Below, piece by piece: positions 15,960 to 54,882 of a DNA stretch of 64,000 nucleotides. The translations under genes were made by a program, and so were the position numbers. Position 1 is the stretch's first letter; each line of letters starts with the position of its first letter. The notes beneath the pieces are model-generated. The model saw only the letters and a program-made list of their open reading frames with translations. It did not search any database and was not told the DNA's origin. The stretch is from a virus (lineage: Duplodnaviria > Caudoviricetes), in the IMG/VR virus record IMGVR_UViG_3300027917_004314; one strand, 5' to 3'.

Positions 15960-16574
15960 ATGAAATTATTCTCTTTTTTAAAGAAAAGAGATGTTCAGGT
16001 ATTTCCTTCCAAGAAGTTAGAAAAAGTAGCTAACAGCGTTGTCAGATTTTTAGAAAAAACTCCCTACCATTCTTTTCCGATTTCCAAATTTGTGGGTTGT
16101 GGTGTATATGCTCTATACTATCGCGGCGATTTGGAAATCTATAAAAATCTGACAAATAGTCAATGCAAACCAATATATGTAGGTAAAGCTGTGCCAAAAG
16201 GCTGGCGCAGTGGTAGGACATCTGTGGAGAAAAAACCTACAAATCTATGGAAAAGAATACAAGAACATTCTAATAGCATCTCTCAAGCAAGTAATCTTCA
16301 TTTATCAGAGTTTGAGTGTAAATACATCATCTTGGACACTGATTTGATAGCATTTGCTGAAGCAAAACTTATCAGAACTTATAAGCCCATATGGAACTGC
16401 GTCGTGGACGGCTTTGGAAATCACCATCCTGGCACTACTAGATTTACGCAGGCGAAGCCGGACTGGGATGTGTTGCATCCAGGACGTCCATGGGCTGCTA
16501 AGATGACTGGGGCATCATCTACTAGTGAACAAATTATAGAAAAGATAGGAGGATTTTTAGATGAAAACCAATGA
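15960..16574 (+). CDS. Eco29kI/Cfr42I-family GIY-YIG endonuclease
   Basis: GVYALYY, PIYVGKA, R..EH..SI, E..LI..YKPIWN..VDGFGNH.PG..R..Q....WD.LHPGR.WA. Confidence 0.85.
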   Translation: MKLFSFLKKRDVQVFPSKKLEKVANSVVRFLEKTPYHSFPISKFVGCGVYALYYRGDLEIYKNLTNSQCKPIYVGKAVPKGWRSGRTSVEKKPTNLWKRIQEHSNSISQASNLHLSEFECKYIILDTDLIAFAEAKLIRTYKPIWNCVVDGFGNHHPGTTRFTQAKPDWDVLHPGRPWAAKMTGASSTSEQIIEKIGGFLDENQ

Positions 16575-16797
16575 GGCTATAGCCGAAATTGTTGAAACAT
16601 TGGACGGATTCACAAGGTCTATGAGACAAAGACAAGAGTGGCTAGAGTGGGCGCGAGGGAAGCGCCTCGACAGTGCCGAAGCTATGATAAATCATACAGT
16701 CTTAATTGTTAAGGAAGAAGCGGAAGTATTTATGATGTCTAGCATTATTACGGCAATTAGACAAATTGTAGAGAGAATTGATAAAGAGGAAGGATGA
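16561..16797 (+). CDS. Hypothetical protein
   Basis: GGAGG RBS; coupled ORF. Confidence 0.65.
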   Translation: MKTNEAIAEIVETLDGFTRSMRQRQEWLEWARGKRLDSAEAMINHTVLIVKEEAEVFMMSSIITAIRQIVERIDKEEG

Positions 16798-17540
16798 AAA
16801 TATATGTAGATGAGGTTGGGTGTGCCAGCATAGCTGGGCCCGTATTGGTGTGTGCAGTGGCACCCAAATTAATTAAGCCGGTAAAAGGAGTGGCGGATTC
16901 TAAGCAGTTGAGCAAGAAGAAAAGGGAAGAACTATATCCGTTGCTTAAGAAAATACCCCACTCGTTTGCCACTTCTTCACCTGGTCGAATTGAAGAGATT
17001 AATATCCATTGGGCAAAGTATGAGGCGATGCGGAAGGCGGTTGAATCTCTGATGCGCAAATGTTCCGTTGGGGCGGAACAAGTAACGAAAGTTATAATAG
17101 ATGGTCCATTTGAAATACCAGGCTTAAATTTACCACAAGAGCCAGTTGTCAAAGCCGACGCAAAGATTTGGCAGGTAGGCGCCGCTTCTATATTGGCAAA
17201 GGTGAAGCGTGATAGGATGATGGCTAAATTTGCTGAAGAAGAGAAATATAGCCATTACGATTGGGAAAATAATGCTGGATATTATACGCCAAAGCACAGA
17301 ATGGGCATAATACTTCATGGGCCAACGGATTTACACCGCAGGAAATACGAGTATTTTAAATATTGTTTATCTCGCCACAAGAAGTATAAAGAATTTATTA
17401 AGAATGGCCAGACCGCCGACGACTATTTTGAATGGGAGATAGAACAGGCCGCTGGATCGAAAAAATCCGATTATATGATGTGGAAAGAAGCCAAGGAAAA
17501 TAGGTGGAAACAAATACCTTTTAAACTGGATAAAAAGTGA
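16794..17540 (+). CDS. rnhB: Ribonuclease HII
   Basis: VDEVG...AGP, DSKQLS, IIDG, VKADAK, AASILAKVKRD, NNAGY.T..H. Confidence 0.92.
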   Translation: MKIYVDEVGCASIAGPVLVCAVAPKLIKPVKGVADSKQLSKKKREELYPLLKKIPHSFATSSPGRIEEINIHWAKYEAMRKAVESLMRKCSVGAEQVTKVIIDGPFEIPGLNLPQEPVVKADAKIWQVGAASILAKVKRDRMMAKFAEEEKYSHYDWENNAGYYTPKHRMGIILHGPTDLHRRKYEYFKYCLSRHKKYKEFIKNGQTADDYFEWEIEQAAGSKKSDYMMWKEAKENRWKQIPFKLDKK

Positions 17541-17549
17541 ACTAATAAG

Positions 17550-17780
17550 ATGAAAGATGAAAAGTTGCCCGAGAAGTTAGAATTAGCCAATGCGGAGATC
17601 AAAAGATTGCAGAAACTGCTAGGCGTTCCGTTTCCGCCGAGAGATGTCATAAAGAAATTAGTCGAGGCGGCCGAACATCTTCTCCATGATCATAATTGTG
17701 ACGCTCATGGATATGAAGAGACCATGCAAGCCGTAGCCGTTGCTAAGAAATGGTTGAATAAAAGGAGTAATGTCTTATGA
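17550..17780 (+). CDS. Hypothetical protein
   Basis: ORF in the operon. Confidence 0.6.
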   Translation: MKDEKLPEKLELANAEIKRLQKLLGVPFPPRDVIKKLVEAAEHLLHDHNCDAHGYEETMQAVAVAKKWLNKRSNVL

Positions 17781-18145
17781 AAATTAGGCTTAGTTTTGTA
17801 AGTAACAGTTCAAGTAGTTCATTTGTAATTGTAATACCCAATAACTTTGATGTTGATAAAATTACAAATGAAGAAATTGACAGGTCTTATTGGGAAAGTA
17901 AGAAATATATATTAGACGATGGGTCCATTAATTATGACAGGATTAAGAAAGGCCTTGGATGTGCTATTGTACAAGGTGGTTTGTACAACGAAGATAATTA
18001 TGAACTTTATGAGTTTGCTATAGATTTGCTGCGCAAATATTCTATTATTTGTTTTAATACCGGGCCAGATTGTGGTGAGATTGCTTTCGTCAAACAATCA
18101 GATCTCGAACGTAGCCTTAAGGAATTCAACGAGGAAAGTGGATGA
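17777..18145 (+). CDS. MKIR-FVSNSSSSS family protein 5
   Basis: N-terminus MKIRLSFVSNSSSSSF. Confidence 0.85.
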   Translation: MKIRLSFVSNSSSSSFVIVIPNNFDVDKITNEEIDRSYWESKKYILDDGSINYDRIKKGLGCAIVQGGLYNEDNYELYEFAIDLLRKYSIICFNTGPDCGEIAFVKQSDLERSLKEFNEESG

Positions 18146-18321
18146 AATGCCCTATTTGTGGCAGTCTCGAAATAGTGGGAAAGTATTTTCCGTTTTGTTC
18201 AGAACGCTGCCAATTAATAGATCTATACTCGTGGTTTAACGGAGATTACGGTTTTTACGAACCGGTTCCAATACCAAATGTAGAGGACGATGACGATTCA
18301 GATCCTTCTTGGGGGAATTAA
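18142..18321 (+). CDS. yacG: YacG-like DNA gyrase inhibitor (59 aa; absent from the ORF track)
   Basis: Hand translation MKCPICGSLEIVGKYFPFCSERCQLIDLYSWFNGDYGFYEPVPIPNVEDDDDSDPSWGN; CPxC...PFCSxRCQLIDLxxW is the YacG signature; ATGA overlap upstream, TAATG overlap with gyrB. Confidence 0.85.
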   Translation: MKCPICGSLEIVGKYFPFCSERCQLIDLYSWFNGDYGFYEPVPIPNVEDDDDSDPSWGN

Positions 18322-21128
18322 TGGCCAGAAGAAAAAAGCACGACGATTATAAAATAACCGCGCTTGAAGGCCTTGCTGCAGTGCGCAAGGTGCCAGGAAT
18401 GTATATTGGGGATACAGACAACGGTGAGGGGTTTCATCATATGCTGATGGAAGTGTTGGATAATAGCGTCGATGAATATCTTGCTGGCCATTGCAACAAA
18501 ATCGTTGTCACATTGCATAAAGATGGTTCTGCTTCTGTTGGAGATAATGGGCGTGGCATTCCTGTATATTATATGAAGGAAAAGAAAATGACTGCTCTTG
18601 AAGTCGTTTTCAGGACATTACACGCTGGCGGTAAATTTGATGATTCCAATTATAAGGTTAGCGGCGGTCTACACGGAGTTGGTGTGTCGGTTGTAAATGC
18701 CTTGTCTGCTCGACTTAAAGTAGTGGTTAGAAGAGATGGTAAAGAATATTCTATGATATTCGAAAAAGGTAAAAAAGTCGAGGATATAACAGAACAAACA
18801 TATAAGGGAAAGGAATCTGGCACTTTTATAAGATTTGCGGCGGACTTAGCAATTTTTAAGGGTGTAATTAGATTTGATCCATCTGTAGTAAGAAAGAAGC
18901 TTATGGAATTGTCGTTTCTTTGTCGCGGATTATCTATTGAATTCATCGACGAAATTAAGGACAAGAGCGAGTTATTTGGCGGGGAAAATGATATGTCCGG
19001 CTTCATAAAATATCTCTCAAAAGGTAGACTATTAGAAGACCCTATTATTTTTACTAAAGACGTAGAACTTAATGACAAAATAATCGTTGTTGATATTGCA
19101 ATGCAGTGGACCAACGGCAGTTCGGATGCCGAAATTTACAGGTATTATACCAATAATATCCCCAACGCAGATGGCGGTTCACATATGTTTGGATTCAGGG
19201 CTGGACTTACTAGGACAATGAACAGCTATATTTCAAACTCTGATTTGCCAAAGTCGCTTAAAATTTCCTTATCGGGAGATGACATTAGGGAAGGGCTAGT
19301 TTCTGTAGTGAGTATAAGGTACCCAGACCCTAAATTCAACTCACAAGTCAAGAGTAAACTTGTCTCTGAAGATGCTAGGACAGCCGTAGAAAGCACCATA
19401 TCGGATCAATTAATGGGATATTTGGAGCAGAATCCCCCGATTGCAAAGAAGATAATTACGAGGTGTGTCAACTCTTACAAGGCTCGTGAGGCAGCGCGTA
19501 AGGCTCGTGAGGCAGTGAGAAAGTCATCATTAGAGTCTGGCGCCGGGTTGCTTCCAGGCAAGCTCGCAGACTGCCAAGAGAGGGATCCTGAAAAGTGTGA
19601 GTTGTTTATCGTGGAAGGAAACAGTGCAGGCGGATGCTTTGCTGGCAATACTAAAGTTTCTTTAACCGATGGTAGAGAATTATCCATGAAAGAATTAGTG
19701 GACGAATTTAACTCGGGCAGACAAAATTATTGTTATTCTGTCGAGGAAAATGGAAGTGTGTGTATACGTCCAATCAAAGATCCGAGAATAACGCGCAGGA
19801 GCTGTTCGGTTATCGAGCTTACTTTAGAGAGTGGGGAAACCATTGTTTGTACGCCCGACCATAAATTTATGTTGGTCGATGGATCCTATGAGCGGGCAGA
19901 CAAGTTGTGTGATAAAAGTATAATGCCTCTGTATAGAAAAATGTCTAGAATAGAAGGTCGCGTCACGATATCCGGCTATGAAATGGTGTGGGATAGAAAC
20001 ACACATAAGTGGATATTTACACATGTGCTAGCAGACAAATATAACCAACTAGCTCACGACATTGGAAAAAAAGCGAAGAATGAATGTCTACATCATATAG
20101 ACTTTATAAAAACTAACAACGATCCGACAAATATCAGGAGAATCGATAAAGACAAACATTTGCAACTGCATTATGAGAATCTTAAAAGAACTTTACATAG
20201 ACCGGATGTAATCGAAAAGTGTCGTCAACTGAAGCGCACTCCCGAATTTCGTAAGAAAATGAGTGAAAGGATGAGGAGGCCGGAAACGGCCAGGAAACTT
20301 TCGATGAATGCCAAATTACAATGGCAGGACGAAGAGCATAAAGCATACATGGTTGAAGCCGTTAAGAAATATAATCATAAAATCGTTAAAATTGTTCAAT
20401 TGAAGAATAAAGTCGATGTGTATGACTTTGAGGTGCCGGGGACCAACAATTTTGCATTATCTTGTGGCGTATTCGTACATAATTCGGCTAAACAAGCTAG
20501 GGATAGGCGATTTCAGGCTATTTTGCCATTGCGCGGCAAAGTCCTTAATATTGAGAAAAAGGAATTCAAAAATTTGGTCGATAATAAGGAATTAGCCAGT
20601 CTTATAGCGGCGATAGGAGCTGGAATTGGCAAATCTTTTAATCCAGATAACATCAGATATAATAAAATTTTGATTATGACTGACTCAGACGTTGATGGTG
20701 CTCATATTAGGACATTGCTACTTACTTTCTTTTTCAGGCAAATGCCACAACTTATTGTTAATGGTAATCTTTTTATTGCGCGCCCACCTCTATATAAGCT
20801 AACATATAGAAACAACACGCATTACGTCCAGGACAATAGCGAATTGAAGTCGTTTATAAAGCGGCACAATATAAAACGGGAGAAAATCGGCAACGGCTTC
20901 TCGTATAAGGGCGTGAAATTACAAAGATTTAAGGGTCTTGGGGAAATGAACCCGGCTCAATTGTGGGAGACGGCTATGGATCCGGAGACCAGAAAGATAT
21001 CTGTTGTGACGATAGATAACTATATAGAAGCAGACAAGATTTTTGGAATACTGATGGGCAATGACGTAGGCCCTAGGAGGGATTTTGTACAAAATAACTC
21101 GGACTTAGCTGAAAATATTGATATATAG
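18321..21128 (+). CDS. gyrB: DNA gyrase subunit B precursor with one intein
   Basis: LEGLAAVRKVPGMYIG, EVLDNSVDE, DNGRGIP, GGLHGVGVSVVNALS, PGKLADC, EGNSAGG|SAK, PLRGK, IMTDSDVDG, QRFKGLGEMN. Confidence 0.95.
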   Translation: MARRKKHDDYKITALEGLAAVRKVPGMYIGDTDNGEGFHHMLMEVLDNSVDEYLAGHCNKIVVTLHKDGSASVGDNGRGIPVYYMKEKKMTALEVVFRTLHAGGKFDDSNYKVSGGLHGVGVSVVNALSARLKVVVRRDGKEYSMIFEKGKKVEDITEQTYKGKESGTFIRFAADLAIFKGVIRFDPSVVRKKLMELSFLCRGLSIEFIDEIKDKSELFGGENDMSGFIKYLSKGRLLEDPIIFTKDVELNDKIIVVDIAMQWTNGSSDAEIYRYYTNNIPNADGGSHMFGFRAGLTRTMNSYISNSDLPKSLKISLSGDDIREGLVSVVSIRYPDPKFNSQVKSKLVSEDARTAVESTISDQLMGYLEQNPPIAKKIITRCVNSYKAREAARKAREAVRKSSLESGAGLLPGKLADCQERDPEKCELFIVEGNSAGGCFAGNTKVSLTDGRELSMKELVDEFNSGRQNYCYSVEENGSVCIRPIKDPRITRRSCSVIELTLESGETIVCTPDHKFMLVDGSYERADKLCDKSIMPLYRKMSRIEGRVTISGYEMVWDRNTHKWIFTHVLADKYNQLAHDIGKKAKNECLHHIDFIKTNNDPTNIRRIDKDKHLQLHYENLKRTLHRPDVIEKCRQLKRTPEFRKKMSERMRRPETARKLSMNAKLQWQDEEHKAYMVEAVKKYNHKIVKIVQLKNKVDVYDFEVPGTNNFALSCGVFVHNSAKQARDRRFQAILPLRGKVLNIEKKEFKNLVDNKELASLIAAIGAGIGKSFNPDNIRYNKILIMTDSDVDGAHIRTLLLTFFFRQMPQLIVNGNLFIARPPLYKLTYRNNTHYVQDNSELKSFIKRHNIKREKIGNGFSYKGVKLQRFKGLGEMNPAQLWETAMDPETRKISVVTIDNYIEADKIFGILMGNDVGPRRDFVQNNSDLAENIDI
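19635..20483 (+). mobile_element. Intein (283 aa) with an HNH homing endonuclease
   Basis: Block A CFAGNT, block B TPDH, block F VYDFEV, terminal VHN followed by Ser; HHIDFIKTNNDPTNI HNH motif. Confidence 0.93.
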
Positions 21129-21212: not shown

Positions 21213-23432
21213 ATGGCCACAGCCGTAATCCAAATCAATACTGCTACCGGGAGTAGGAGCGACTTAACCCTTGGCGTGCAAGTCAATCTTAACGATGCTG
21301 GGACCGGAGCTATTGTCAGGCTCTGGGAGTTTCTATCTAGGCCGCCCGGCTCTAGCGCAACTCTCAATAATCCTACTTCCAAGACGCCGGATTTTACGCC
21401 AGATGTGGTAGGTTCCTACAGGATTAGATTAACGGTTAATAGTTCTGTAGTAGATATAGCTATAGGCGCAGTCCGTACGACCAATCTTAGTTTGCGTGTC
21501 CCCGCTACGGGCGAAGAAGATGAATTCGATGAGTCAGGGAATACCGACGGCTGGTCTTCTTCTATGCACGAGGCGTTGCTCGCAATTGATACGGACTCTG
21601 TCTCAGCAAAGACGCCCACAGCACATGCAGAATCCCACCAAGATGGATATTCTGATGAACTTACGGTACAGGACTTAGGTTCTGGTGCTGCTGCATCAAA
21701 TCAAATATTAGTTTCTGATGGCTCTGGCGGTTGGTCTGTGTCTGCAAAGCCTAGTCTGGATGAGACCTACAATGAGGGAAGATATATCTTTGTAGATAGT
21801 GGGCCGGTAATATTAGCCGCGTCAGACGGCAACGCCTTACAGATGGACGGTTATTTGACTCTCGTCCAAATCCTTGAGCCTGGTTTCGTGCCAGTGAGCG
21901 GCATTTTATATACTAAGAATATAGATGGCTATGTAGATTTATTTTTCAAAGATAATTATGGGTATGGCGTTCAGATTACCGGCGATGGCTATCTAGACAC
22001 GTTCGGCGGTGTGCGCGGAGTCGGCTTATTTGAGCAGAGCGGTGATCCTACTCCGGAGTCACAGAAGGGTTTTATTTATTCTGGTGATGAAAGTGGTAGG
22101 ACGGAACTATTTTATATGGATAATTATGGATCTGTTGTTCAGATAACAAGCGATGGCTATCTGGACGTTTTTGAAAGTGTTCCTGGAGTTGGATTATTTG
22201 AACAAGGATCTGATCCATCGGCTGCTCCGCAGAAAGGTTTTATTTACTCCAAGGATGATAGTGGAACGACAGAGTTGTTCTATATGGATAATTATGGTGT
22301 CATCACACAGATCACCAACGATGGTTATTTAGATACATTTGAGAGTGTACCAGGAGTCGGGATGTTCGAACAGGCTTCTGACCCTGCAGCTGCTCCCGAC
22401 AAAGCTTTCATATATTCAAAACAAAGTGGCGGCGGAATAACAGAGTTATTCTTTATGGATAGTAATGGCTCTGTAACGCAGATGACGAACGATGGTTATG
22501 TTAGTGGGACGGCCGCTTCAGGTTTTACAGATCTAAGTGATACCCCAGCTTCTTATAGCGGTGAGGCAGGTAAATATGTAGTAGTAAATGATACAGAAGA
22601 TGGCATTGAGTTTGGGATCATTGACGGTGGTACTGGGTTAGTAGATGGCTACTTGCCGATGCCAGAAAAAGCTTCTGACCCTCCGTATGAAGATGGATAT
22701 GGTAGCATTTATACCAAAGATGTAAGTGGTATCACGGAGATGTTTTTTATAGATAATCTTGGGACAGTTACACAAGTGACCTCTGATGGGTACATTGGCG
22801 CAGAGGTACAGGGAGATGGCTATGATGAATTGGCGCCATCTGATACTAATGGCACAGAAACGTCTCTATCACTTTCTGAGTGGCCAGTAGTAGAGCCAGA
22901 CATGCCGTCTGGATACGCCCTTGATATGTTTATCAACGGCCAAAAGATGCGCTACGTTGAGACCTTGGACGCCTATGAAACTGAATTTACATATGACCCC
23001 TCTTTGAATAAAGTTGAGTTTCTTGCATCTGGTACTGCTGGCACTTGGTATTGTGCACGGTATAGGACTACTACGGGTATTCATCCGCCACCAGCCGATG
23101 TAGCCACGATATTTACCAGCGTGGTATTGGATCAAGACCGCACGAGTTCAATAGTAAATAAGTCTGGGCGCAATACCGTAGCTTTCGATATTGAATTAAC
23201 AGCTGCCGACGGATATTCTTTCGGTACGGAAGGGACACTCAAAGTCATAGCTGGAAATACCGCCAGTATTGATGGATATGATACACTCGATGTCCCGCAG
23301 TGGACAGTAGAAGTAGATGGGTACGTGAAACTGGAACTGGAGACCGGATTTACCCATGTTGGATTGTTTTTCGATCACACATCTGACGATGGTTACGGCG
23401 ACACAATTTCGGCTTCTGTAGCGGTGAGTTAA
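21213..23432 (+). CDS. Virion fibre/adaptor-like protein with tandem 56-aa DGY repeats
   Basis: N-terminal PKD-like segment (FTPDVVGSYRIRLTV); 15 DGY motifs; GGAGG RBS. Confidence 0.7.
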   Translation: MATAVIQINTATGSRSDLTLGVQVNLNDAGTGAIVRLWEFLSRPPGSSATLNNPTSKTPDFTPDVVGSYRIRLTVNSSVVDIAIGAVRTTNLSLRVPATGEEDEFDESGNTDGWSSSMHEALLAIDTDSVSAKTPTAHAESHQDGYSDELTVQDLGSGAAASNQILVSDGSGGWSVSAKPSLDETYNEGRYIFVDSGPVILAASDGNALQMDGYLTLVQILEPGFVPVSGILYTKNIDGYVDLFFKDNYGYGVQITGDGYLDTFGGVRGVGLFEQSGDPTPESQKGFIYSGDESGRTELFYMDNYGSVVQITSDGYLDVFESVPGVGLFEQGSDPSAAPQKGFIYSKDDSGTTELFYMDNYGVITQITNDGYLDTFESVPGVGMFEQASDPAAAPDKAFIYSKQSGGGITELFFMDSNGSVTQMTNDGYVSGTAASGFTDLSDTPASYSGEAGKYVVVNDTEDGIEFGIIDGGTGLVDGYLPMPEKASDPPYEDGYGSIYTKDVSGITEMFFIDNLGTVTQVTSDGYIGAEVQGDGYDELAPSDTNGTETSLSLSEWPVVEPDMPSGYALDMFINGQKMRYVETLDAYETEFTYDPSLNKVEFLASGTAGTWYCARYRTTTGIHPPPADVATIFTSVVLDQDRTSSIVNKSGRNTVAFDIELTAADGYSFGTEGTLKVIAGNTASIDGYDTLDVPQWTVEVDGYVKLELETGFTHVGLFFDHTSDDGYGDTISASVAVS
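21981..22487 (+). repeat. Three tandem coding repeats (168, 168 and 171 nt)
   Basis: xDGYLD.F..V.GVG.FEQ..DP...P.K.FIYS.....TELF.MD..G...Q.T units start at 21981, 22149 and 22317. Confidence 0.9.
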
Positions 23433-40284: not shown

Positions 40285-42332
40285 CAGATGAACAAATCAA
40301 AAATTGGCTAGCTAGACATGGCGAGAAAATTGAGCCAGATTTCGTATTCGAAGAAGAAAAAGCGGAAGCAGCTCAAAGGTCTGTGGTGCATGACGGTAGC
40401 TGGCCAGATCCCAAAAGACCGGGCAATGCCGGCATATTCTCTGGGATTTCTTTTTCTAAAAATGAATTTAATCGCGTTGTGGGCGATCCTGACAATTGGG
40501 AGGCAATTCTAAGTGATGATGACCTGTACAATCAATGGATCCTCCCCAACGCGATTTTATTATTCGCCAAGACTTGGTTTGACAGAATAAAATGGAAACC
40601 ATCTATACACAAATCCGTGCCGTTTCCGTTATTTTCTGACAACGAGCGTAGTACGGCTGTCATGGCTAAACAAGAGTTGGAGCACACTCCGCATGGCAAG
40701 GCTAGGATTGCAAAGATAATGGCCAAGGCATCTTCAGCCCTAGAAGTATATTTGTCGGGCAGGTGGCTTGAAAAAACAAAATATTTAAAGAAACCGGGTG
40801 CATATATAATAGAATCGATAAGAAACGATGTAATACGTGAAATTGGCACTGATATGGGGTACAAGCTAATACCTACGTTAGCATGCCCATATTGCTTGGC
40901 GCCAGGCAAATCAGATTCTTATAAAGTACCGTTAATTAGGCATTCTTTTAAACAATATTCTTGTCCCAAATGCGTAGACGATTCTAATAACCTAGAATTG
41001 GAAATACAAAATGCTGGCAGGAAGCATAGAGGGACACTCGCCGCAGAGAAATTTGAGAAGACAAGACAGTTTAAATATTTTATTGGAGTTACATGTGTTT
41101 GTCCAAACGACAAATGTAGAGGCAAGTTTGTTCCATTAACATGTGTCAATACTAAAATATTTAATCCAGAAAGATACCGCATCAATGGTGCGCTTAAGGG
41201 TCTGTGTATTTCAAGAGATATTCAGTCGTTTAAGAGGCCCCCTAAAATCCTAGAGGATTTTCCATTGGTGTGTCCACATTGTGATACAGAGTTCACTCCG
41301 AGAAGTGCTCTTACAAGTAAATCTGGTTTCAAGAAAAAATCAGGTCATTTAACGGGATTACCTACGATATATATCTGGGTTAAAAAAGAAGCAAATACGC
41401 TAGATGAACCTATGTATGACAACCATTTAACAAGAAAAGATGGGTTGGTGGCAAAATCAGAAGATCTTAATAGTCATATTAATGCCAAACAACGTGTCAG
41501 CCTGTTGATAGGTGAGATAATTATCCGTGCGGCCAGGGTTAATAACAAGTCGTTTGACGGCCTCATGACTTTATATTTTTATAAAGCAGCAATAATATGG
41601 ATGGACAAATACTGGGAAGATGCATCTAGGTATTTCTTTGGATGGTTTGAATACGAAAGAGATCTCAGTGCTAAAGAAATGGCCCGTAATCCTGGAAAGA
41701 CCAAAAAAAAGATGACCAATATTTGTAGAGGTTCAGAGGTCACCATCCATCTATCGTTTTTTCAAGAGTGGCTAAAAGTCATTGAAGAAAATATAGAAAA
41801 GATACGCGAGGTTAACCCAGACATTAAAAAACTTAAGGATCTGAAATGGTTCTGTCGGCCGCCAAAATTTAGTGGTGGGCCAGAGTCAAACTTTATATCT
41901 GATGTCGACGACAAATTAAAAATCGCAAATAAGACAAGTATAAAGCCCGTTAGTTCGTGGGACGGCATGCCCAGACTTGCTAAAGTGCTGGCAATCTATA
42001 AAATGAAAGATGGTGTCGTTAATAGAACAAAAAATTATATATCTGATGTAAGAGGAATTGGATGGCATTCTATAGATCTAGTACCAAATACTTCTCTAAA
42101 GGTAGGAGAAAAAGTAAAAGTGAAGGCGCTAATGATGTCTGGGCATCCGACACATACCCCAATACAAAGAATCATTCGATTGAGATCCATTACTCTTAAA
42201 AATATTATAGATAGAATTTTACGTGAAGAAGCTGCGGGCGACACAGATGTATTGTTTTGGAAATCATGGAAGAACAGAGTGAAAGCAGCTAAAGAAAAAG
42301 TTGGCCATATTGTTAGGAGCTATAATGACTGA
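40281..42332 (+). CDS. Hypothetical multi-Zn-ribbon protein (683 aa)
   Basis: CPYC, CPKC, CVCPNDKC, CPHC. Confidence 0.8.
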   Translation: MTDEQIKNWLARHGEKIEPDFVFEEEKAEAAQRSVVHDGSWPDPKRPGNAGIFSGISFSKNEFNRVVGDPDNWEAILSDDDLYNQWILPNAILLFAKTWFDRIKWKPSIHKSVPFPLFSDNERSTAVMAKQELEHTPHGKARIAKIMAKASSALEVYLSGRWLEKTKYLKKPGAYIIESIRNDVIREIGTDMGYKLIPTLACPYCLAPGKSDSYKVPLIRHSFKQYSCPKCVDDSNNLELEIQNAGRKHRGTLAAEKFEKTRQFKYFIGVTCVCPNDKCRGKFVPLTCVNTKIFNPERYRINGALKGLCISRDIQSFKRPPKILEDFPLVCPHCDTEFTPRSALTSKSGFKKKSGHLTGLPTIYIWVKKEANTLDEPMYDNHLTRKDGLVAKSEDLNSHINAKQRVSLLIGEIIIRAARVNNKSFDGLMTLYFYKAAIIWMDKYWEDASRYFFGWFEYERDLSAKEMARNPGKTKKKMTNICRGSEVTIHLSFFQEWLKVIEENIEKIREVNPDIKKLKDLKWFCRPPKFSGGPESNFISDVDDKLKIANKTSIKPVSSWDGMPRLAKVLAIYKMKDGVVNRTKNYISDVRGIGWHSIDLVPNTSLKVGEKVKVKALMMSGHPTHTPIQRIIRLRSITLKNIIDRILREEAAGDTDVLFWKSWKNRVKAAKEKVGHIVRSYND

Positions 42333-43656
42333 GGAACAAGTACAAAAAACAGAAGAAGAACAGGAAAAATGGCACCATGTTGCCACCGTTGAGGAACTTG
42401 GTGGTCTGAGCAGAAAAGTGCATATTGTTTACGATATAGAAGGCGTTAAAATGGCTACAGATAAAGCCATAGACTTGATAGGAAAAAACACCCAAATAAA
42501 GGGATTTAGACGTGGTAAGGCTCCAAGGCCACTGGTAGAAGTACACTGCAGGGAAGAAATTAAAAAGATGGCGTCCACAATGCTGTCCCAAGAAGGATAT
42601 CTACATGCCTGTTACGAGAATAAATTTTGCGCTATGACAGAACCAAGGGTTGAGAACTCTGAGTTCAGTATAGGTGGTACGTTTTCATGTGATATATTTT
42701 TTGAGATTAGGCCTTCTATTACCCCGACGGGTTATATTGGTCTACAACTTGAGAAGGAGTCTGTCGACAGAGAAGAGATTATTCAACGCAGTTTAGAAAA
42801 TGCCAGACAACAACATGCAAGTGAAGTAGAAGCAAGTAAGGTGGAAATTGGATCAATTGTTACATTGGATTTTAAAGTGCATAGGGACGGGCAAGAACTG
42901 TCCTCTGGTACTGACCACAGGTTTATGATAAGTGCTGGTCAAGAGTTGCCATTTGGCGAGAACCTAGTTGGTAAAGAAGTTGGGGCAAATCTGTCGGAAA
43001 CCATCGTTTTGCCGGAAGGATATAAGAACATGGGCGGGGAATCAGCTACCGTTGATATGACAATTAAAGGCATATTAAAACTAGTTCCTCCATCTGATCA
43101 AGAATTAGTAGAACGAATGGAAGCACCATCGTTTGGAGAGCTAATTGATATACTCGGAAAACATGCCGATCAGGAAATTACTGTTAAAAACCAACAATCA
43201 CTAGAAGAACAAATAATAGATAAGTTGTTAGAATTACATGAGTTTGAAGTGCCGGAGAAATGGGTGGACGACGAAGAGCGGTATATGCGTTCTCAATTAG
43301 GGTTTCAATCTGATATGGACCCGGAGATGAAACAGCATATTAGATCCATGGCAGACAGGAATGTTAGAAGAACGTTTATCTTGGATGCTATATATGATGC
43401 TGAACCAGATCTTAAATTAAAGGATGAAGAATTTGAACAACTGTTGAAACAAGAAGCTCAGGCAAGGAATGTAAGCAAGTTAATCGTAAAGAAAGAGCTT
43501 CAAGAAAAAGGCATGATGGATGCTGTTTACGGCATGTTAAGACACAAGAAAGTTATGGGCTTGATATTAAGTCAGGCCATAATTATTAATAAGGACGGAG
43601 AATTGGAGAAGGCTGCCGAAGACTCGGAGAGTATTCCTGATAATCCATTAGGGTAA
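42325..43656 (+). CDS. tig: Trigger factor-like chaperone/PPIase
   Basis: IKGFRRGKAP ribosome-binding signature, FKBP-like middle domain, helical C-domain. Confidence 0.8.
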   Translation: MTEEQVQKTEEEQEKWHHVATVEELGGLSRKVHIVYDIEGVKMATDKAIDLIGKNTQIKGFRRGKAPRPLVEVHCREEIKKMASTMLSQEGYLHACYENKFCAMTEPRVENSEFSIGGTFSCDIFFEIRPSITPTGYIGLQLEKESVDREEIIQRSLENARQQHASEVEASKVEIGSIVTLDFKVHRDGQELSSGTDHRFMISAGQELPFGENLVGKEVGANLSETIVLPEGYKNMGGESATVDMTIKGILKLVPPSDQELVERMEAPSFGELIDILGKHADQEITVKNQQSLEEQIIDKLLELHEFEVPEKWVDDEERYMRSQLGFQSDMDPEMKQHIRSMADRNVRRTFILDAIYDAEPDLKLKDEEFEQLLKQEAQARNVSKLIVKKELQEKGMMDAVYGMLRHKKVMGLILSQAIIINKDGELEKAAEDSESIPDNPLG

Positions 43657-44371: not shown

Positions 44372-44374
44372 TTG

Positions 44375-47300
44375 ATGTCTAGAGAGTTTGTTAATCTCCA
44401 CGCTCACACCAATTTGGGGTCGATGCTGGATGCTCTGTCGTATGTAGACGATCTATTTAACAGGGCAGATGAACTGGGACAAAAAGCCCTAGCTATTACT
44501 GATCATGGAACTCTTGGTTGCCATTATGATGCATTTCAAGCCTATAAAAGAACCGGGATCAAGTTTATTCCAGGATGCGAAATGTATTTTGTGCGTTCAT
44601 ACGACTATTTGCCTGCAGAGGGCAAGGGTAGTAGAAAAAAGACCGAGAAAAGAAAACATATAGTTCTATTAGCGCAAAATGAAATTGGCTATAAAAACCT
44701 GTTAAAAATAAACTTTGAGGGTTTTAAACAGCATGTAATAGTAATGGGCAGAGTTTTCCCTAGAGTGAGTTGGGAAGAACTTGAGAAGTATTCGGAAGGT
44801 ATTATAGCGACCTCTGCGTGTGGCAGTGGGATACTCGCTGAACACATTTTTAAAGGAGAGCTTGATAAAGCTATAAGTGCAGCTTTGCGTCTGCAAAGAA
44901 TATATAACGACAGATTCTATATAGAAATCCAACCACACAGCTTAAAAGATGATCGGGTGGATCAAATATTTCTTAACAATCAACTTATAAATATTGCACA
45001 GAAACTTGGCATAGAGTTGGTTGTTGGTGTTGATGCCCACTACATAACAAGAGACTCCGAGAAAATTCATGACGTATTATTGGCAATTAACTCCAAGAAG
45101 CCGGTTGATGACCCAACTAGACACAGATATGGTATAGATGAATTTTACGTCAAGTCTGGCGACGAGGTATACGATTTCTTAGAAAAATACCATGGGAAAT
45201 CTGTGGCCACGGCAGCTGTAGAAAACACAGTCAAAATAGCGGCTACATGTGATTTGCCAGACTATATGGAACCGAGCGGTAACCATTTGCCGATATTTAA
45301 TCCGTGTGGTGAGTCAGATTTCAAAGAGTTTTGTGAGTGGGCTGAAACGACAAGAATACCAAAAGACATGGCTCTAGATAAGAAATATATGAGATATAAA
45401 GTTGTCAGCGGTTTCAAGCAAAAATTTGGCCACATGTCAGAGGCAGACCAGAAAATTAGGTGGGATAGAGTCAAGAAAGAACTCAAAATCTTAGAAGGAA
45501 ATAACTTTTCTTCTTATATGCTGGTGACTGCCGATTTCATCCAGTGGGCTAAAGACCATGACATTTTATGTGGTGTGGGCCGTGGGAGCGTGGGCGGATG
45601 TATCGTTGCGTATCTGTTGGGGATTCACGGCGTAGATCCTATAGAATATAATTTACTATTTGAAAGATTTCAAAATGCCTATAAAAAAGATTTACCAGAT
45701 ATAGATACAGACTTCACCTCAGCTGGAAGAGACATGGTCCAGGAGTATGTAAGGAAAAAATATGGGTATGATCATTGTGCACAAGTATCTAATATTAATA
45801 CGTATACTCCTAAAAATGTGATACCTGATCTTGTCAAATCTATGAGAAATGTAATGCCAAATCTCATAGGAAAAGATCAGTATTACGTAAAAGTAGCTGA
45901 AGCTATTAAGGCGGCCATTCCGGAGGCAGACGAAAATAAGAAAAGAGTTAAAACCCTAGAAAGGGCTATGAGTCTGTCGTCAGACTTAAGAGATTTTGCA
46001 GCCAAATGTCCAGAACTCATGGAGTACGCAGATGCTATTATTGGAATGCCAAAAGAGTATTCCACCCATGCGGCTGGAATGGTGGTATCTGACATACCAA
46101 TCGTTGAGTTTGCGCCGCTTAGAATTGATAAAAACGGTGTAGTTGCTGTACAATATGAGAAAAACAGGTGTGAAAGCCTTGGTTTAGTAAAAATGGATTT
46201 CTTAGCTATCTCAACTTTGGATGTAATAGATGAAACACTTAAGAACATTCGTAGGCTAGGTATTACGGATGGCCCCAGACAGATGGAGGATATTCCGTTA
46301 GATGATGAAGAAACCTACAAAATGATCCAAGGTGGCCACACCAAATGCGTGTTTCAACTGGGTAAATCTGGTATGATGGTAGCTCTGTGTAAAAAAATTC
46401 GTCCTAAGAATATACTGGATATCGCGGTAGTTAATGCTTTGGGGCGTCCGTCGTCGACCCATGAAAGGCAGGAATATATAAACCGCAGGTTTGGAAAAAA
46501 GGAGATATCTTATCTACACTCGAGTCTAGAAAATTGTTTGTCGCAGACCTATGGGCTGTGTATAATGGAAGAGCAATTGATGGATGTGGCTAAAGACGTA
46601 GCTGGATGGGATCTAAACAAAGCCGACGGATTGCGTAAGTTGACCAAATGGAAGGGTAAAGACCCAAAGTTTGCATTGCAGCTGGAGGCTGATTTCATCG
46701 AAGGAATGATGAAGAAACATTCTACTAGTCTAGAATTGTCTAAAGAAGTATGGGATAAAATTGTAGAAAAGTTCAGTGGATATGGATTCAACAAAAGTCA
46801 TGCTGTTTTCTATTCAATTAATGGATATATTACCGCCTATTTGAAATGTCACTATCCTGCAGCATTCCTGGCTGCATATTTGAAAGTTAAGACAGCCAGG
46901 GGTGGCATCAATAAAGACGATGAAATTAATATGGCGAAGATGGAGTGCCGGCGTCTTGGCGTAAGGATTGTGCCTCCAGATATCAACAGGAGTAACGCTG
47001 GATATGAAGTTTTAGACGCAGATACTATTGTTATGGGTTTTGCGGCTATCAAAGGAATGGGCGAGAAGGCAATAGCACAGGTTATTAATAACCAGCCCTT
47101 CTCATCTTTTAGAGATTTCCTACACAGAGTGGATGCGCGCGTTGTTAATAAAACCAAATTAGAGGTTATGGCGAAGGCCGGTTGCTTTGATTCTTTTAAG
47201 ATCTCAAGAAGGGATATCCACGACGAAGGCAAAAAAGTCAGGGATAAGATGAATATTTTCATTAGGAAGAAGGTGAAGGATGGATATCAGTCTGACATGG

Positions 47301-47749
47301 CTGTTGAAGAGTTTCCTATTAGAATGCCTGGTCAGGAGTGGTCTCAGCAAGAGAAATTGCGTCACGAGCAAGAAGTTCTAGGTGAGCTTGTGTCCGGCTC
47401 TCTTACTGATTTGTTTCCAGGATTTTTTACAGGATATAACGTGACTCCTATTTCTAGACTTAGAATGCTGCCAGATCGGCAACAAATCGTTGTAGAGGTG
47501 CTTATAAAGGCATTTTTACGTGAATTCAATATTAAGACTGGAAAATACAGAGGATTGCCAATGGCCAAATATTTGGTGGAAGACACCATTGGTACAGAAA
47601 CAGAGCTTACAGTGTGGCCAGATCAATACGCTAATGCCAAAAAAATGCTCAAAGTAGGTCGACCTATCAGGGCAATTTGCCAAGTTAGTGAATTTAATGG
47701 AGTAAAATCACTAATGTTAAGGGAGATAGAAAAAGTGTACGGAATGTAA
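44375..47749 (+). CDS. dnaE: DNA polymerase III alpha subunit
   Basis: PHP motifs LHAHT/AITDHG/DAHY, GRGS, PDIDTD, STHAAG, VKMDFL, GYGFNKSHA; no intein seen. Confidence 0.95.
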   Translation: MSREFVNLHAHTNLGSMLDALSYVDDLFNRADELGQKALAITDHGTLGCHYDAFQAYKRTGIKFIPGCEMYFVRSYDYLPAEGKGSRKKTEKRKHIVLLAQNEIGYKNLLKINFEGFKQHVIVMGRVFPRVSWEELEKYSEGIIATSACGSGILAEHIFKGELDKAISAALRLQRIYNDRFYIEIQPHSLKDDRVDQIFLNNQLINIAQKLGIELVVGVDAHYITRDSEKIHDVLLAINSKKPVDDPTRHRYGIDEFYVKSGDEVYDFLEKYHGKSVATAAVENTVKIAATCDLPDYMEPSGNHLPIFNPCGESDFKEFCEWAETTRIPKDMALDKKYMRYKVVSGFKQKFGHMSEADQKIRWDRVKKELKILEGNNFSSYMLVTADFIQWAKDHDILCGVGRGSVGGCIVAYLLGIHGVDPIEYNLLFERFQNAYKKDLPDIDTDFTSAGRDMVQEYVRKKYGYDHCAQVSNINTYTPKNVIPDLVKSMRNVMPNLIGKDQYYVKVAEAIKAAIPEADENKKRVKTLERAMSLSSDLRDFAAKCPELMEYADAIIGMPKEYSTHAAGMVVSDIPIVEFAPLRIDKNGVVAVQYEKNRCESLGLVKMDFLAISTLDVIDETLKNIRRLGITDGPRQMEDIPLDDEETYKMIQGGHTKCVFQLGKSGMMVALCKKIRPKNILDIAVVNALGRPSSTHERQEYINRRFGKKEISYLHSSLENCLSQTYGLCIMEEQLMDVAKDVAGWDLNKADGLRKLTKWKGKDPKFALQLEADFIEGMMKKHSTSLELSKEVWDKIVEKFSGYGFNKSHAVFYSINGYITAYLKCHYPAAFLAAYLKVKTARGGINKDDEINMAKMECRRLGVRIVPPDINRSNAGYEVLDADTIVMGFAAIKGMGEKAIAQVINNQPFSSFRDFLHRVDARVVNKTKLEVMAKAGCFDSFKISRRDIHDEGKKVRDKMNIFIRKKVKDGYQSDMAVEEFPIRMPGQEWSQQEKLRHEQEVLGELVSGSLTDLFPGFFTGYNVTPISRLRMLPDRQQIVVEVLIKAFLREFNIKTGKYRGLPMAKYLVEDTIGTETELTVWPDQYANAKKMLKVGRPIRAICQVSEFNGVKSLMLREIEKVYGM

Positions 47750-50998: not shown

Positions 50999-51625
50999 AT
51001 GGCAAAGAAAAAGTCGGTTATAAAAGACAAGTTTGTCAAATTGCCGCGACGTAGATTATATGGAACAGGAAAAATTAGAATATTGGGGTTAGATTGTAGT
51101 TCTACCACGGTCGGCTGGGGCCTTATCACTTTGAATAAAAGCGGCCCGTCACTAGTGGCATATGGACATATAAAACCTTTAAAGGGTAAACATAGTCTTT
51201 TGGAAAAGCTAGATGATGTTCATCGTAGAATAGCAAATCTATGTTCTGATCTTAGCCCCTCCCATATAGCTATCGAAGATATATTATTATATATGAAAGG
51301 GAAGTCCGGTGCTAAAACCATAACTACTTTAGCTGTGTTTAATCGAATAATAGGGCTATCCGCATACCAAAATTCCGAAGCAAAGATTAAATTCTATTCT
51401 GTACAAACCATTCGGAAAATGATTAGAGATGCGTGTGATGGTACGACGGATCGTATATCGAAGAAAGACTTGCCTCATATTATCCGAACATGGTTAGAAC
51501 CAGGGTTCGAGGACGCTGTGAACAGTAAAGGTGCTGTAGAGGGCGAGACTTACGATGAGGGTGATGCAATCGCAGCTGCATGGTGTTGCGGGTTAGATCT
51601 AATGAAACAAGGTATGTCGAAATGA
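50999..51625 (+). CDS. ruvC: RuvC-like Holliday junction resolvase
   Basis: [26 protein letters not shown]. Confidence 0.78.
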
Positions 51626-52650
51626 AAGATCCTTATGAGATTTTGGGTGTCGAGCCTGGTGCGTCGGAAGATGAGATTAAGAAAGCATATAAAAATCTTG
51701 CCCTCAAGTGGCACCCGGATGTACATCCAGACGACAAGGAGGACGCAGAAGAAAAGTTTAAAGAGATTAGTTCAGCATATGAAGTTCTAAAGAACAACAA
51801 TTGGACGAAACCTCCTGAAGGTTTTTCTTTTGATGGATTGAACATAGATTTTAATACTATGTTCAACCAATTTTTTTCTGGTTCCCGATTTACCGATATT
51901 TTTGGTTTGGGGAACTCTACAGGTCCATTTGGAAGGGGCCGCCCTAAACAACCAAAAATGCGCACCGGTAAGATAATGATTTCATTGGAAGAAGCATATA
52001 ACGGTTGTACGAAGAACCTTGATGTGATATGGAAAGAAGCTTGTGAAGAATGCGATGGTATTGGAGTAAAATTGAAGGACGCTTATTGTACGCGTTGTAG
52101 CGGCTATGGACAGATTAGGGTACAGCGCGGGTCAATGTTCCTTGGGACTACCTGTGCAAATTGTAATGGTTTCGGAAAAGAAATCGATTCCGCGTGTTCT
52201 AATTGTAATGGTAATCGTGAAATTAGGAAGTCAAAAAATATAACTCTAAGCATTCCGCCGTTCACGGCGCATGGCACTACAATTACTCCAGAGAGAATGT
52301 TTTCTATCCTTGTACTATACAAGCCGCATTCAGAATATGAATTGTCACGTAATATGGTAGACGTTAGCAGCAATACTACTATCGATATATTTAAGGCAAT
52401 GTTAGGGGGCACAGTCAAAGTTAAAACCCTGTCAGGAGAAAAAAATATAAAAATTTCGCCTACGTGCCAGCCGGGGACCACTCTTAGGATTAGAGGCGCT
52501 GGTATGATTAGTGGTGGCCGCGTGGGTGATCATTACGTGCAAGTTAAAGTGAAGTTGCCAGAAGATCTTACAGTGGAACAAAAGAGCTTGTTGCAAAAGC
52601 TTGATGCCACTACAAAAGGAGGAGAGAAAAATGGCAAAGAAACAGGATAA
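51622..52650 (+). CDS. dnaJ: DnaJ chaperone (J-domain, four CxxCxGxG repeats, C-terminal domain)
   Basis: [24 protein letters not shown]; [32 protein letters not shown]. Confidence 0.92.
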
Positions 52651-54111: not shown

Positions 54112-54882
54112 GTGGACAGCAGTGCAAGTAAGATTTTTGCACGGGTAGCAAAATTTTGCCACGGACGCCTCTTGAAAAATGAAGAGGTGATGGCATATCT
54201 GCTCGAAAACAGGCAAATACAAAAAGAGTTCATAGATAAGTTTCAAATAGGGCTGTTTCCTCAAGATTTAAGAGAACTTTTCGAGAAAGAGGATCCCAAG
54301 CAACTAAGAGAATTAGATATAATATATCACGCCTCATATAGCAGATTTAAGACTCAAGACCTTGTTATGCCAATTAGAGATGTCTACGGGAACTATATAG
54401 CCATTGCTGGTAGGACCAGATTACCAGAAAAAGAGCGTGGTGGTATACCTAAATATATGAATTCCATATATAAGAAAAGCCACCACCTTTTTGGCCTAAA
54501 CTTTGCCAAGAGAGATATCTTGAAAAAAGGAATAGTATATGTAGTAGAAGGGTACTTTGATGTTATCGCATCTCATCAGAACGGGATGGGTAATGTGGTG
54601 GCAGTTTGTGGTAAATACCTGTCTACTAGGCATATAGCATTGCTATCTAGATATACAGATCGTATCACGCTGTTATTTGATAATGAGGAAGAAGCGCAAC
54701 AGCGAGCCAAGAATATTGTTGATAAAAAACAATATAACGGCATAATGCTTACCGCCGCTAATCCTTTTCCGAGTGATGTCAAAGATATAGATGATTATTT
54801 CCTGGAGCACTCTGTCGAAGAATTAATGGCAACCTTGAAGTCGGAAGGAGACTATGGTAGTATTAGACCCTTATGGGAATGA
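54112..54882 (+). CDS. dnaG: DnaG primase catalytic core (RNAP-like + TOPRIM), no Zn finger
   Basis: R.I.....KFQIG, MPIRD..G..IAIAGR, PKYMNS, LFGL, VVEGYFDV, LLFDNE. Confidence 0.85.
   Translation: MDSSASKIFARVAKFCHGRLLKNEEVMAYLLENRQIQKEFIDKFQIGLFPQDLRELFEKEDPKQLRELDIIYHASYSRFKTQDLVMPIRDVYGNYIAIAGRTRLPEKERGGIPKYMNSIYKKSHHLFGLNFAKRDILKKGIVYVVEGYFDVIASHQNGMGNVVAVCGKYLSTRHIALLSRYTDRITLLFDNEEEAQQRAKNIVDKKQYNGIMLTAANPFPSDVKDIDDYFLEHSVEELMATLKSEGDYGSIRPLWE

Follow-up and report, generated by a model that had tools for sequence, protein, structure and literature searches.

A YacG-family zinc ribbon kept beside an orphan gyrB in a clade of huge phages

Introduction

Why would a phage encode a member of the YacG family of gyrase inhibitors next to its own gyrB, and which GyrB would such a protein act on, that of the host or that of the phage? 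The question is raised by IMG/VR virus record IMGVR_UViG_3300027917_004314 (Duplodnaviria; Caudoviricetes), of which one stretch of 64,000 nucleotides, called the window here, was analyzed. Within it, a 59-codon open reading frame (ORF) runs directly into a gyrB gene. YacG has been known so far as a chromosomal regulator that acts on the gyrase of its own bacterium; the gyrase inhibitors known from phages are peptides unrelated to it. A sequence-only reading of the window had proposed that the small ORF is an unannotated YacG-like gene translationally coupled to gyrB, and that the two form either an inhibitor/replacement pair directed at host gyrase or a built-in brake on the phage's own enzyme. 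The parts of this interpretation that could be tested are supported. The small protein belongs to the YacG family, binding hot-spot residues are present in both partners, the pair is inherited together across a clade of huge phages, and no gyrA was found in the members of that clade that were searched. On the sequence evidence, the likeliest target of this YacG would be the phage's own GyrB, alone or in a hybrid with host GyrA; we give this reading a probability of about 0.4 and slightly favor it over shut-off of the host enzyme.

A YacG-family protein encoded next to gyrB

The two genes at the center of the analysis are the following (window coordinates).

18142..18321, + strand: yacG-like gene encoding 59 aa (P0001), a C4 zinc ribbon with a helix at residues 21-32 and an acidic tail
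18321..21128, + strand: gyrB, encoding a 935-aa precursor (P0002; about 652 aa when spliced) with Pfam domains HATPase_c, DNA_gyraseB, Toprim and DNA_gyraseB_C

The exact peptide described by the sequence-only reading was recovered at the first of these positions, and Cys3, Cys6, Cys19 and Cys23 as well as the acidic tail with Trp57 were all found. Its assignment to YacG is borne out by the hidden Markov model of the Pfam family (PF03884), which P0001 matches clearly (51 bits, with the cut-off at 25.5; E = 1.2e-13), over residues 1-50 of the protein and positions 1-49 of the 52 in the model. The cut-offs of the NCBIfam YacG equivalog models were missed (NF002362, 45.4 versus 79 bits; NF001638, 34.8 versus 83 bits), and on these scores P0001 classes as a member of the YacG family but not as an equivalog by the NCBI standard. 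A PDB sequence search with P0001 returned 4TMA_I and 1LV3 (E = 3e-6) as the only significant structures; both are E. coli YacG, free in 1LV3 and bound to gyrase in 4TMA. An AlphaFold2 model of P0001, built with 11 homologues, reached a predicted local distance difference test (pLDDT) score of 79, with values above 90 for residues 1-30, and consists of a zinc ribbon and a single helix. The four top PDB matches of the model are the YacG chains I, K, J and L of 4TMA (probability 0.97-1.00, template modeling score 0.52-0.65), with Foldseek E-values of only 0.01-0.1 owing to the small size of the protein. Sequence and predicted fold together identify the 59-aa protein as a true YacG-family zinc ribbon.

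The residues of E. coli YacG correspond to those of P0001 as follows.

C9, C12, C28 and C32 to C3, C6, C19 and C23: kept
P26 to P17: kept
Q33 to Q24: kept
D36 to D27: kept
W40 to W31: kept; W31 ends the helix 21-32
I47 to F38: hydrophobic character kept
W59 to W57: kept
W18 to V12: changed
K30 to E21: changed

The zinc ligands (CPxC ... FCSxRC) are invariant in 11/11 aligned sequences. Beyond them, the tryptophan equivalent to W40 is present in 10/10 clade YacGs and in 69/69 metagenome homologues, and the position equivalent to I47, seven residues past this tryptophan, is occupied by I or F in every clade YacG. In the study of the 4TMA complex, W40 was invariant, the W40V substitution abolished GyrB binding and I47A weakened it (PMC4083091). 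The tail is kept less strictly: the tryptophan equivalent to W59, which in E. coli docks between the winged-helix domains of GyrA, is found in the window protein but in only 4/10 clade YacGs. In E. coli, the tail past residue 52 is nearly dispensable, inhibition being near-normal without it (PMC4083091).

The yacG ORF is more than a chance ORF, because it matches the Pfam family, has homologues at the matching position in nine other loci and shows a synonymous excess across the clade, with nonsynonymous differences per site (pN) of 0.11-0.33 versus synonymous ones (pS) of 0.65-0.90, which indicates purifying selection. The gene was unannotated only on the 60-aa track used for the sequence-only reading; the Joint Genome Institute (JGI) gene calls carry it with PF03884. 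The junctions on either side involve the following features.

17777..18145, + strand: ORF upstream of yacG, 122 aa (P0005), whose stop overlaps the yacG start (ATGA)
18131..18135, + strand: Shine-Dalgarno-like GAGGA, 6 nt 5' of the yacG ATG, read from the sequence
18311..18316, + strand: Shine-Dalgarno-like GGGGGA, 4 nt 5' of the gyrB ATG, within the yacG coding sequence

The yacG ATG (18142-18144) shares bases with the TGA of the upstream ORF, and the yacG TAA (18319-18321) has one base in common with the gyrB ATG (18321-18323), forming TAATG; the gyrB start at 18321 agrees with the N-termini of relatives. The upstream protein matched no family in a Pfam search, and an identical copy of it occurs in locus L002. 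Both junctions are thus as first described. Their use as a sign of translational coupling did not hold up: since 30/70 gene junctions in the window overlap and the overlap is not conserved in relatives, where other genes intervene in 8/10 loci, overlap is the norm of this genome and no special evidence of coupling.

Conservation of the pair in a huge-phage clade

IMG/VR scans with a single YacG or GyrB N-extein query found nothing, and relatives were found with alignment- or relative-based queries. About 45 short GyrBs were obtained at 54-83% identity on contigs of up to 442 kb. Matches beyond this set are bacterial GyrBs, whose identity is about 50%. A tree that included 73 bacterial GyrBs places 44 clade rows on one branch, which has a Shimodaira-Hasegawa-like approximate likelihood ratio test (SH-aLRT) support of 100 and a long stem. 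The branch is about equally far from Pseudomonadota, Myxococcota and Acidobacteriota and gives no host assignment.

Ten clade loci were surveyed: the window, L006, L007, L097, L098, L099 (= G008), L100 (= G006), L164, L165 and L167 (= G007). In 10/10 of them, over a range of GyrB identity of 54-92%, gyrB is preceded on its own strand by yacG, and the pairing that had been noticed in a single window thereby recurs across the huge-phage clade. What lies between the two genes varies.

Nothing: window, L006
MazG: L007, L164
DUF723 endonuclease-like gene: L098
MazG and DUF723: L099
282-aa ORF: L097
Methylase - NgoPII - methylase cassette: L100
ORF and methylase: L165
About 2.8 kb without annotation: L167

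Direct overlap is confined to the window and L006, and one to three genes intervene in the other eight; the close junction seen in the window represents the pair without insertions and is not a conserved trait. The gap between yacG and gyrB is an insertion hot spot in the relatives (L098:5389-6273, L099:8897-10011, L100:6835-9970, L165:5682-7441 and L007:4058-4423), having received DUF723 endonuclease-like genes, MazG and the methylase-NgoPII-methylase restriction-modification cassette.

Two controls place this pairing in context. A YacG match was found in 0/63 bacterial gyrB loci (10-kb flanks, 1.13 Mb in total), and gyrB was found in the flanks of 0/73 metagenomic yacG loci (22 with at least 2.5 kb on each side). 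The bacterial control gyrBs (42-54% identity) came from a contig scan with the clade GyrB P0022, which missed P0022's own contig. In proteobacteria, yacG sits in a coaE/zapD context (PMC4083091). Because all ten clade loci are paired whereas neither control yielded a pair, yacG-gyrB is a module that is specific to the clade and has long been retained there. Synteny from RNase HII to SbcCD extends throughout the clade, and since the ten loci are syntenic over this whole block, they are best counted as one retained ancestral arrangement and not as ten independent events. P0022 itself is encoded on an NCBI contig of 180,056 bp labeled as a Patescibacteria-group metagenome-assembled genome and is 65% identical to the window's GyrB; because it falls inside the phage clade, its contig probably stems from a huge phage and was placed in a bacterial bin.

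Absence of gyrA

The sequence-only reading had seen no gyrA in the window and had raised the possibility of a hybrid between phage GyrB and host GyrA. A search with PF00521 gave 0 candidates in the window and in the 161-kb IMG/VR record that contains it (G000, about 40% complete), the 460,921-bp contig that carries identical YacG and GyrB lying outside the search. It likewise gave 0 candidates in three relatives, G006 (441,904 bp, CheckV completeness 100%), G007 (340 kb, 84%) and G008 (302 kb, 75%). With residues 1-525 of E. coli GyrA as the query, no match appeared at E up to 10 in these four records. As a positive control, the PF00521 search responded in 12/14 control genomes and in 4/4 other gyrB-bearing virus records. 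By the same kind of search, yacG (PF03884) is present in G000 and in 3/3 of G006, G007 and G008. The more distant gyrB phages G009-G012 show the reverse pattern, with gyrA in 4/4, within a few kb of gyrB, and yacG in 0/4; among them, G012 is rated 100% complete with terminal repeats. Four IMG/VR contigs (L008-L011, 13-155 kb) encode YacG homologues at 40-49% identity with neither gyrB nor gyrA in the record, these records being 19-64% complete.

The clade thus appears to carry a module of orphan gyrB plus yacG. The cleavage tyrosine of type IIA topoisomerases lies in the GyrA-type subunit. Because this residue sits there and no gyrA was found in the clade records searched, an active enzyme would need host GyrA, and the hybrid enzyme becomes a serious idea.

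The phage GyrB, its intein and its YacG-docking surface

The phage GyrB exceeds the cut-off of NCBIfam NF011501 (837 versus 796 bits) and is 51% identical to E. coli GyrB. It is of the short type, without the proteobacterial insert domain, and the GHKL ATPase, transducer, TOPRIM and C-terminal tail domains are all present. Its catalytic residues are intact in the alignment, P0002 E432 and D788/D790/D792 corresponding to E. coli E424 and D498/D500/D502. The TOPRIM domain is interrupted by an intein.

19635..20483, + strand: intein of 283 aa (GyrB residues 439-721), inside the TOPRIM motif EGNSAGG / C...HN / SAKQ

Its boundaries were set by alignment to the intein-free GyrBs of E. coli and L007. 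The features of an intein are complete (C439, H720-N721, then S722; matches to Pfam Intein_splicing and to the NCBIfam N- and C-terminal intein models), and the middle part has a weak HNH_3 match (E = 0.43). Of about 46 clade GyrBs, 12 or more have Intein_splicing domains (lengths 782-1175 aa), with L007 and L097 lacking them. Since so many clade members carry intein domains while close relatives do not, gain and loss of inteins in clade gyrB are frequent.

Residues that contact YacG were tabulated, in E. coli GyrB numbering, for 46 clade and 73 bacterial GyrBs. The clade shows the following states.

H505, L509, F513, R516, F777 and L780: identical in 46/46
Q517: identical in 44/46
M461: M, L, V or I
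Y515: F in 44/46
D481: acidic residue lost in 42/46
K447: R in 45/46
D426: variable

A natural comparison is provided by ParE, since YacG leaves E. coli ParE uninhibited (PMC10886550). E. coli ParE departs at six contact positions (V461, L513, V515, K516, H517 and M777). No escape substitution was found in the phage GyrB pocket, in which F513, R516, Q517 and F777 are of the GyrB type and not of the ParE type; because the pocket is GyrB-type at the positions where ParE differs, the phage GyrB bears no known escape signature. This GyrB-like pocket points weakly to sensitivity to YacG. Conservation of the tryptophan pocket was rejected as proof of such sensitivity, the core pocket residues being near-universal in bacterial GyrBs of many phyla. 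The Y515F change is likewise shared with many bacterial GyrBs, including 29/33 from Acidobacteriota. A charge-swap argument that coupled the YacG change from K30 to E21 with the loss of D481 in GyrB was dropped, as Glu at that YacG position also occurs in other homologues and the metagenome sample had been picked by a pattern that includes Glu. A complex prediction with YacG, two TOPRIM extein pieces and zinc scored 0.50 versus 0.35 for the control, which speaks neither for nor against binding.

Two of the tabulated positions are substituted in the window protein. N434 (19620-19622) stands at E. coli D426 and R738 (20532-20534) at E. coli K447, the two classical quinolone-resistance positions of GyrB. 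Across the clade, the D426 position is D in 28, N in 7, S in 5, Q in 2 and E in 1, while Asp is found there in 72/73 bacterial GyrBs.

Which GyrB does the phage YacG act on?

In the reading that we prefer, the intein would be spliced out and the phage GyrB would then assemble with host GyrA. YacG, made from the same message, would cap this GyrB in a roughly stoichiometric manner. By homology, it would dock on the TOPRIM domain, with W31 and F38 filling the two hydrophobic pockets taken by W40 and I47 in E. coli YacG, and docking would keep gyrase off DNA. Capped in this way, the orphan subunit or the hybrid enzyme could be kept off DNA, in a form that does not cleave, until engagement on DNA takes place. 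The phage protein would then serve as a brake, a holding factor or a safeguard, much like E. coli YacG toward the gyrase of its own cell. Free orphan GyrB is a plausible partner because E. coli YacG binds both isolated GyrB and the isolated TOPRIM domain with a dissociation constant of 30-45 nM. Several considerations weigh against this reading. As the pocket residues are near-universal in bacterial GyrBs, their conservation says little about sensitivity to the phage YacG. Affinity could be lowered by Y515F and the loss of acidic D481, two clade-wide departures from the proteobacterial state at peripheral contact positions, and by K447R. To make an inhibitor together with a target that is sensitive to it seems self-cancelling, and the reading leaves unexplained why the phage carries gyrB at all.

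The closest competitor, which we regard as a real possibility though with the odds somewhat against it, is that of an inhibitor and a spared replacement. YacG would shut off the gyrase that contains host GyrB, and a YacG-tolerant phage GyrB would take over host GyrA, making a phage-controlled hybrid the sole active gyrase in the infected cell; as only the docked subunit needs replacing, gyrA would be dispensable. A single idea would account for gyrB being an orphan and for yacG always accompanying it. It fits the distribution of yacG among phage gyrase records (0/4 with gyrA, 4/4 without), although this contrast sets one clade against two or three lineages. It also agrees with the presence of yacG on other viral contigs that have no gyrB in the record, and with the reading of prophage YacG-like genes as inhibitors of host gyrase (PMC10449497; bioRxiv 10.64898/2026.08.12.739948). 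The changes shared across the clade at the zinc-finger docking surface and in the loop of the quinolone-resistance-determining region (Y515F, D481 lost, K447R, variable D426) could be marks of tolerance, and YacG evolves far faster than GyrB (61% versus 92% identity between the window and L006). However, none of the substitutions known to accompany YacG insensitivity is present, F513, R516, Q517 and F777 being GyrB-type, and Y515F is common in bacteria. Were this explanation correct, a clade of 300-460-kb sediment phages might have given up gyrA and might hijack host gyrase subunit by subunit, in a protein-level form of "toxin plus resistant target", an extrapolation that we hold to be tentative to the same degree.

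We consider it unlikely that the YacG fold serves a job outside gyrase, for example as a zinc ribbon in the replication module that binds nucleic acids or proteins, with its proximity to gyrB reflecting inherited gene order. The clade-wide synteny from RNase HII to SbcCD, which reduces the ten loci to one ancestral arrangement, would suit this explanation, as would the tolerance of insertions between yacG and gyrB with loss of neither gene and the missed equivalog cut-offs (45 versus 79 bits). Nevertheless, the residues conserved in the clade beyond the zinc ligands are the gyrase-binding set of E. coli YacG (DL..W and a hydrophobic residue seven positions on), and the YacG family has no other known function. 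More improbable still is a complete phage gyrase with its regulator, whose GyrA-like subunit escaped the search through excessive divergence, through being split or through lying beyond the sequence covered. In its favor, the window's record reaches a completeness of about 40% only, CheckV figures are estimates and the 461-kb contig with the identical gene was outside the search. Against it, PF00521 found zero candidates in 1.24 Mb of four clade records, one rated 100% complete, E. coli GyrA found none either, the profile was positive in 12/14 control genomes and in 4/4 other phage records, and the search reads through stop codons, so recoding would not hide the gene.

Phage genome around the pair

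The record that contains the window (G000) encodes a large terminase, portal, prohead protease, tail sheath and baseplate wedge, gene content that identifies the genome as that of a phage; the completeness given above for this record is the CheckV estimate. The GenBank phage collection held no close relative, with TerL (large terminase) identity of about 25% and contaminating bacterial contigs as the top GyrB matches. The sequencing runs that carry window DNA are all DNA runs, with no RNA run among them, and come from marine sediment, with one small share in wetland; they have no bearing on expression. The window is a long run of replication and bacterial-like genes on one strand, among them DnaE, FtsK, SbcCD, RNase HII, trigger factor and DnaJ. 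The genes that flank the pair are listed here.

16794..17540, + strand: RNase HII gene (Pfam RNase_HII), left-hand synteny anchor of the yacG-gyrB block
21213..23432, + strand: 739-aa protein (P0003) with Asp-Gly-Tyr repeats, directly 3' of gyrB, without a Pfam family

The RNase HII gene is at the matching position in L007, L098, L099, L164 and L165, and a similar Asp-Gly-Tyr-type protein lies 3' of gyrB in L007 (L007:6421-9015). Two genes 5' of RNase HII, an Eco29kI-family restriction endonuclease (15960-16574, 204 bits) has a counterpart in a like place in L098. Further into the window, bacterial-type genes stand among many ORFs without a family: trigger factor at 42301-43656, DnaE (DNA polymerase III alpha) at 44372-47749 and DnaJ at 51580-52650. 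A second Toprim-domain match (38.7 bits) belongs to a 256-aa ORF at 54112-54882, apart from gyrB, with a matching ORF in G008.

Comparison with known systems

Neither a yacG-gyrB module in a phage nor an orphan phage gyrB working with host GyrA was found described in a literature search. The closest known protein is E. coli YacG (PF03884; 1LV3, 4TMA), which P0001 resembles in profile, sequence and predicted fold, in the four zinc cysteines, in the core P-F-C-S-x-R-C-Q-L-I-D-L-x-x-W, in the equivalents of W40 and I47 and in an acidic tail with a late tryptophan. Unlike E. coli YacG, the window gene is encoded by a phage beside gyrB, away from the coaE/zapD setting of proteobacteria. Its product differs by a shorter inter-knuckle loop without W18, by the change of K30 to E21 and by scores under the NCBIfam equivalog cut-offs, and the clade as a whole keeps the tail tryptophan in fewer than half of its members.

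Extra gyrB copies beside a GyrB inhibitor have a parallel among producers of gyrase antibiotics such as aminocoumarins, whose self-resistance works through a second, insensitive gyrB copy. The likeness lies in the co-inheritance of a GyrB inhibitor with an additional gyrB, which is the logic of a spared replacement. The difference is that the aminocoumarin-type inhibitor is a small molecule at the ATPase site with known resistance substitutions, whereas no resistance substitution was identified in the phage GyrB.

Among viruses of bacteria, YacG-like genes have been described in small prophages, namely P. aeruginosa vB_PaeP-D14I (PMC10449497) and the Stromatodesulfovibrio provirus SNV1 (bioRxiv 10.64898/2026.08.12.739948). 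These share with the present case a YacG-family gene on a virus, but their descriptions include no gyrase gene on the element itself, whereas here yacG is fixed beside a gyrB that the phage encodes, and the genomes span 300-460 kb. Two phage proteins of about 50 aa, Gip (CGP3 prophage) and Igy (LUZ24 gp9), inhibit gyrase reversibly (PMC10886550); their folds are unrelated to YacG, Gip binds GyrA, Igy is thought to be a DNA mimic, and neither is accompanied by a gyrase subunit of the phage. Phages with a complete gyrase, such as Bacillus megaphage G, which encodes both subunits (PMC12484599), and those of G009-G012, resemble the present clade in being large phages that encode a bacterial-type GyrB. 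In them, gyrA lies beside gyrB and yacG is missing, while the clade described here has the opposite arrangement. A yacG fixed by gyrB in a huge-phage clade without gyrA would imply mixed phage/host gyrases and provides a natural setting where a single inhibitor encounters two versions of GyrB within one cell. If the phage GyrB is spared, it would map what makes a GyrB insensitive to YacG, at a site that is also struck by small-molecule screens; if it is sensitive, YacG would be a holding factor for an orphan subunit.

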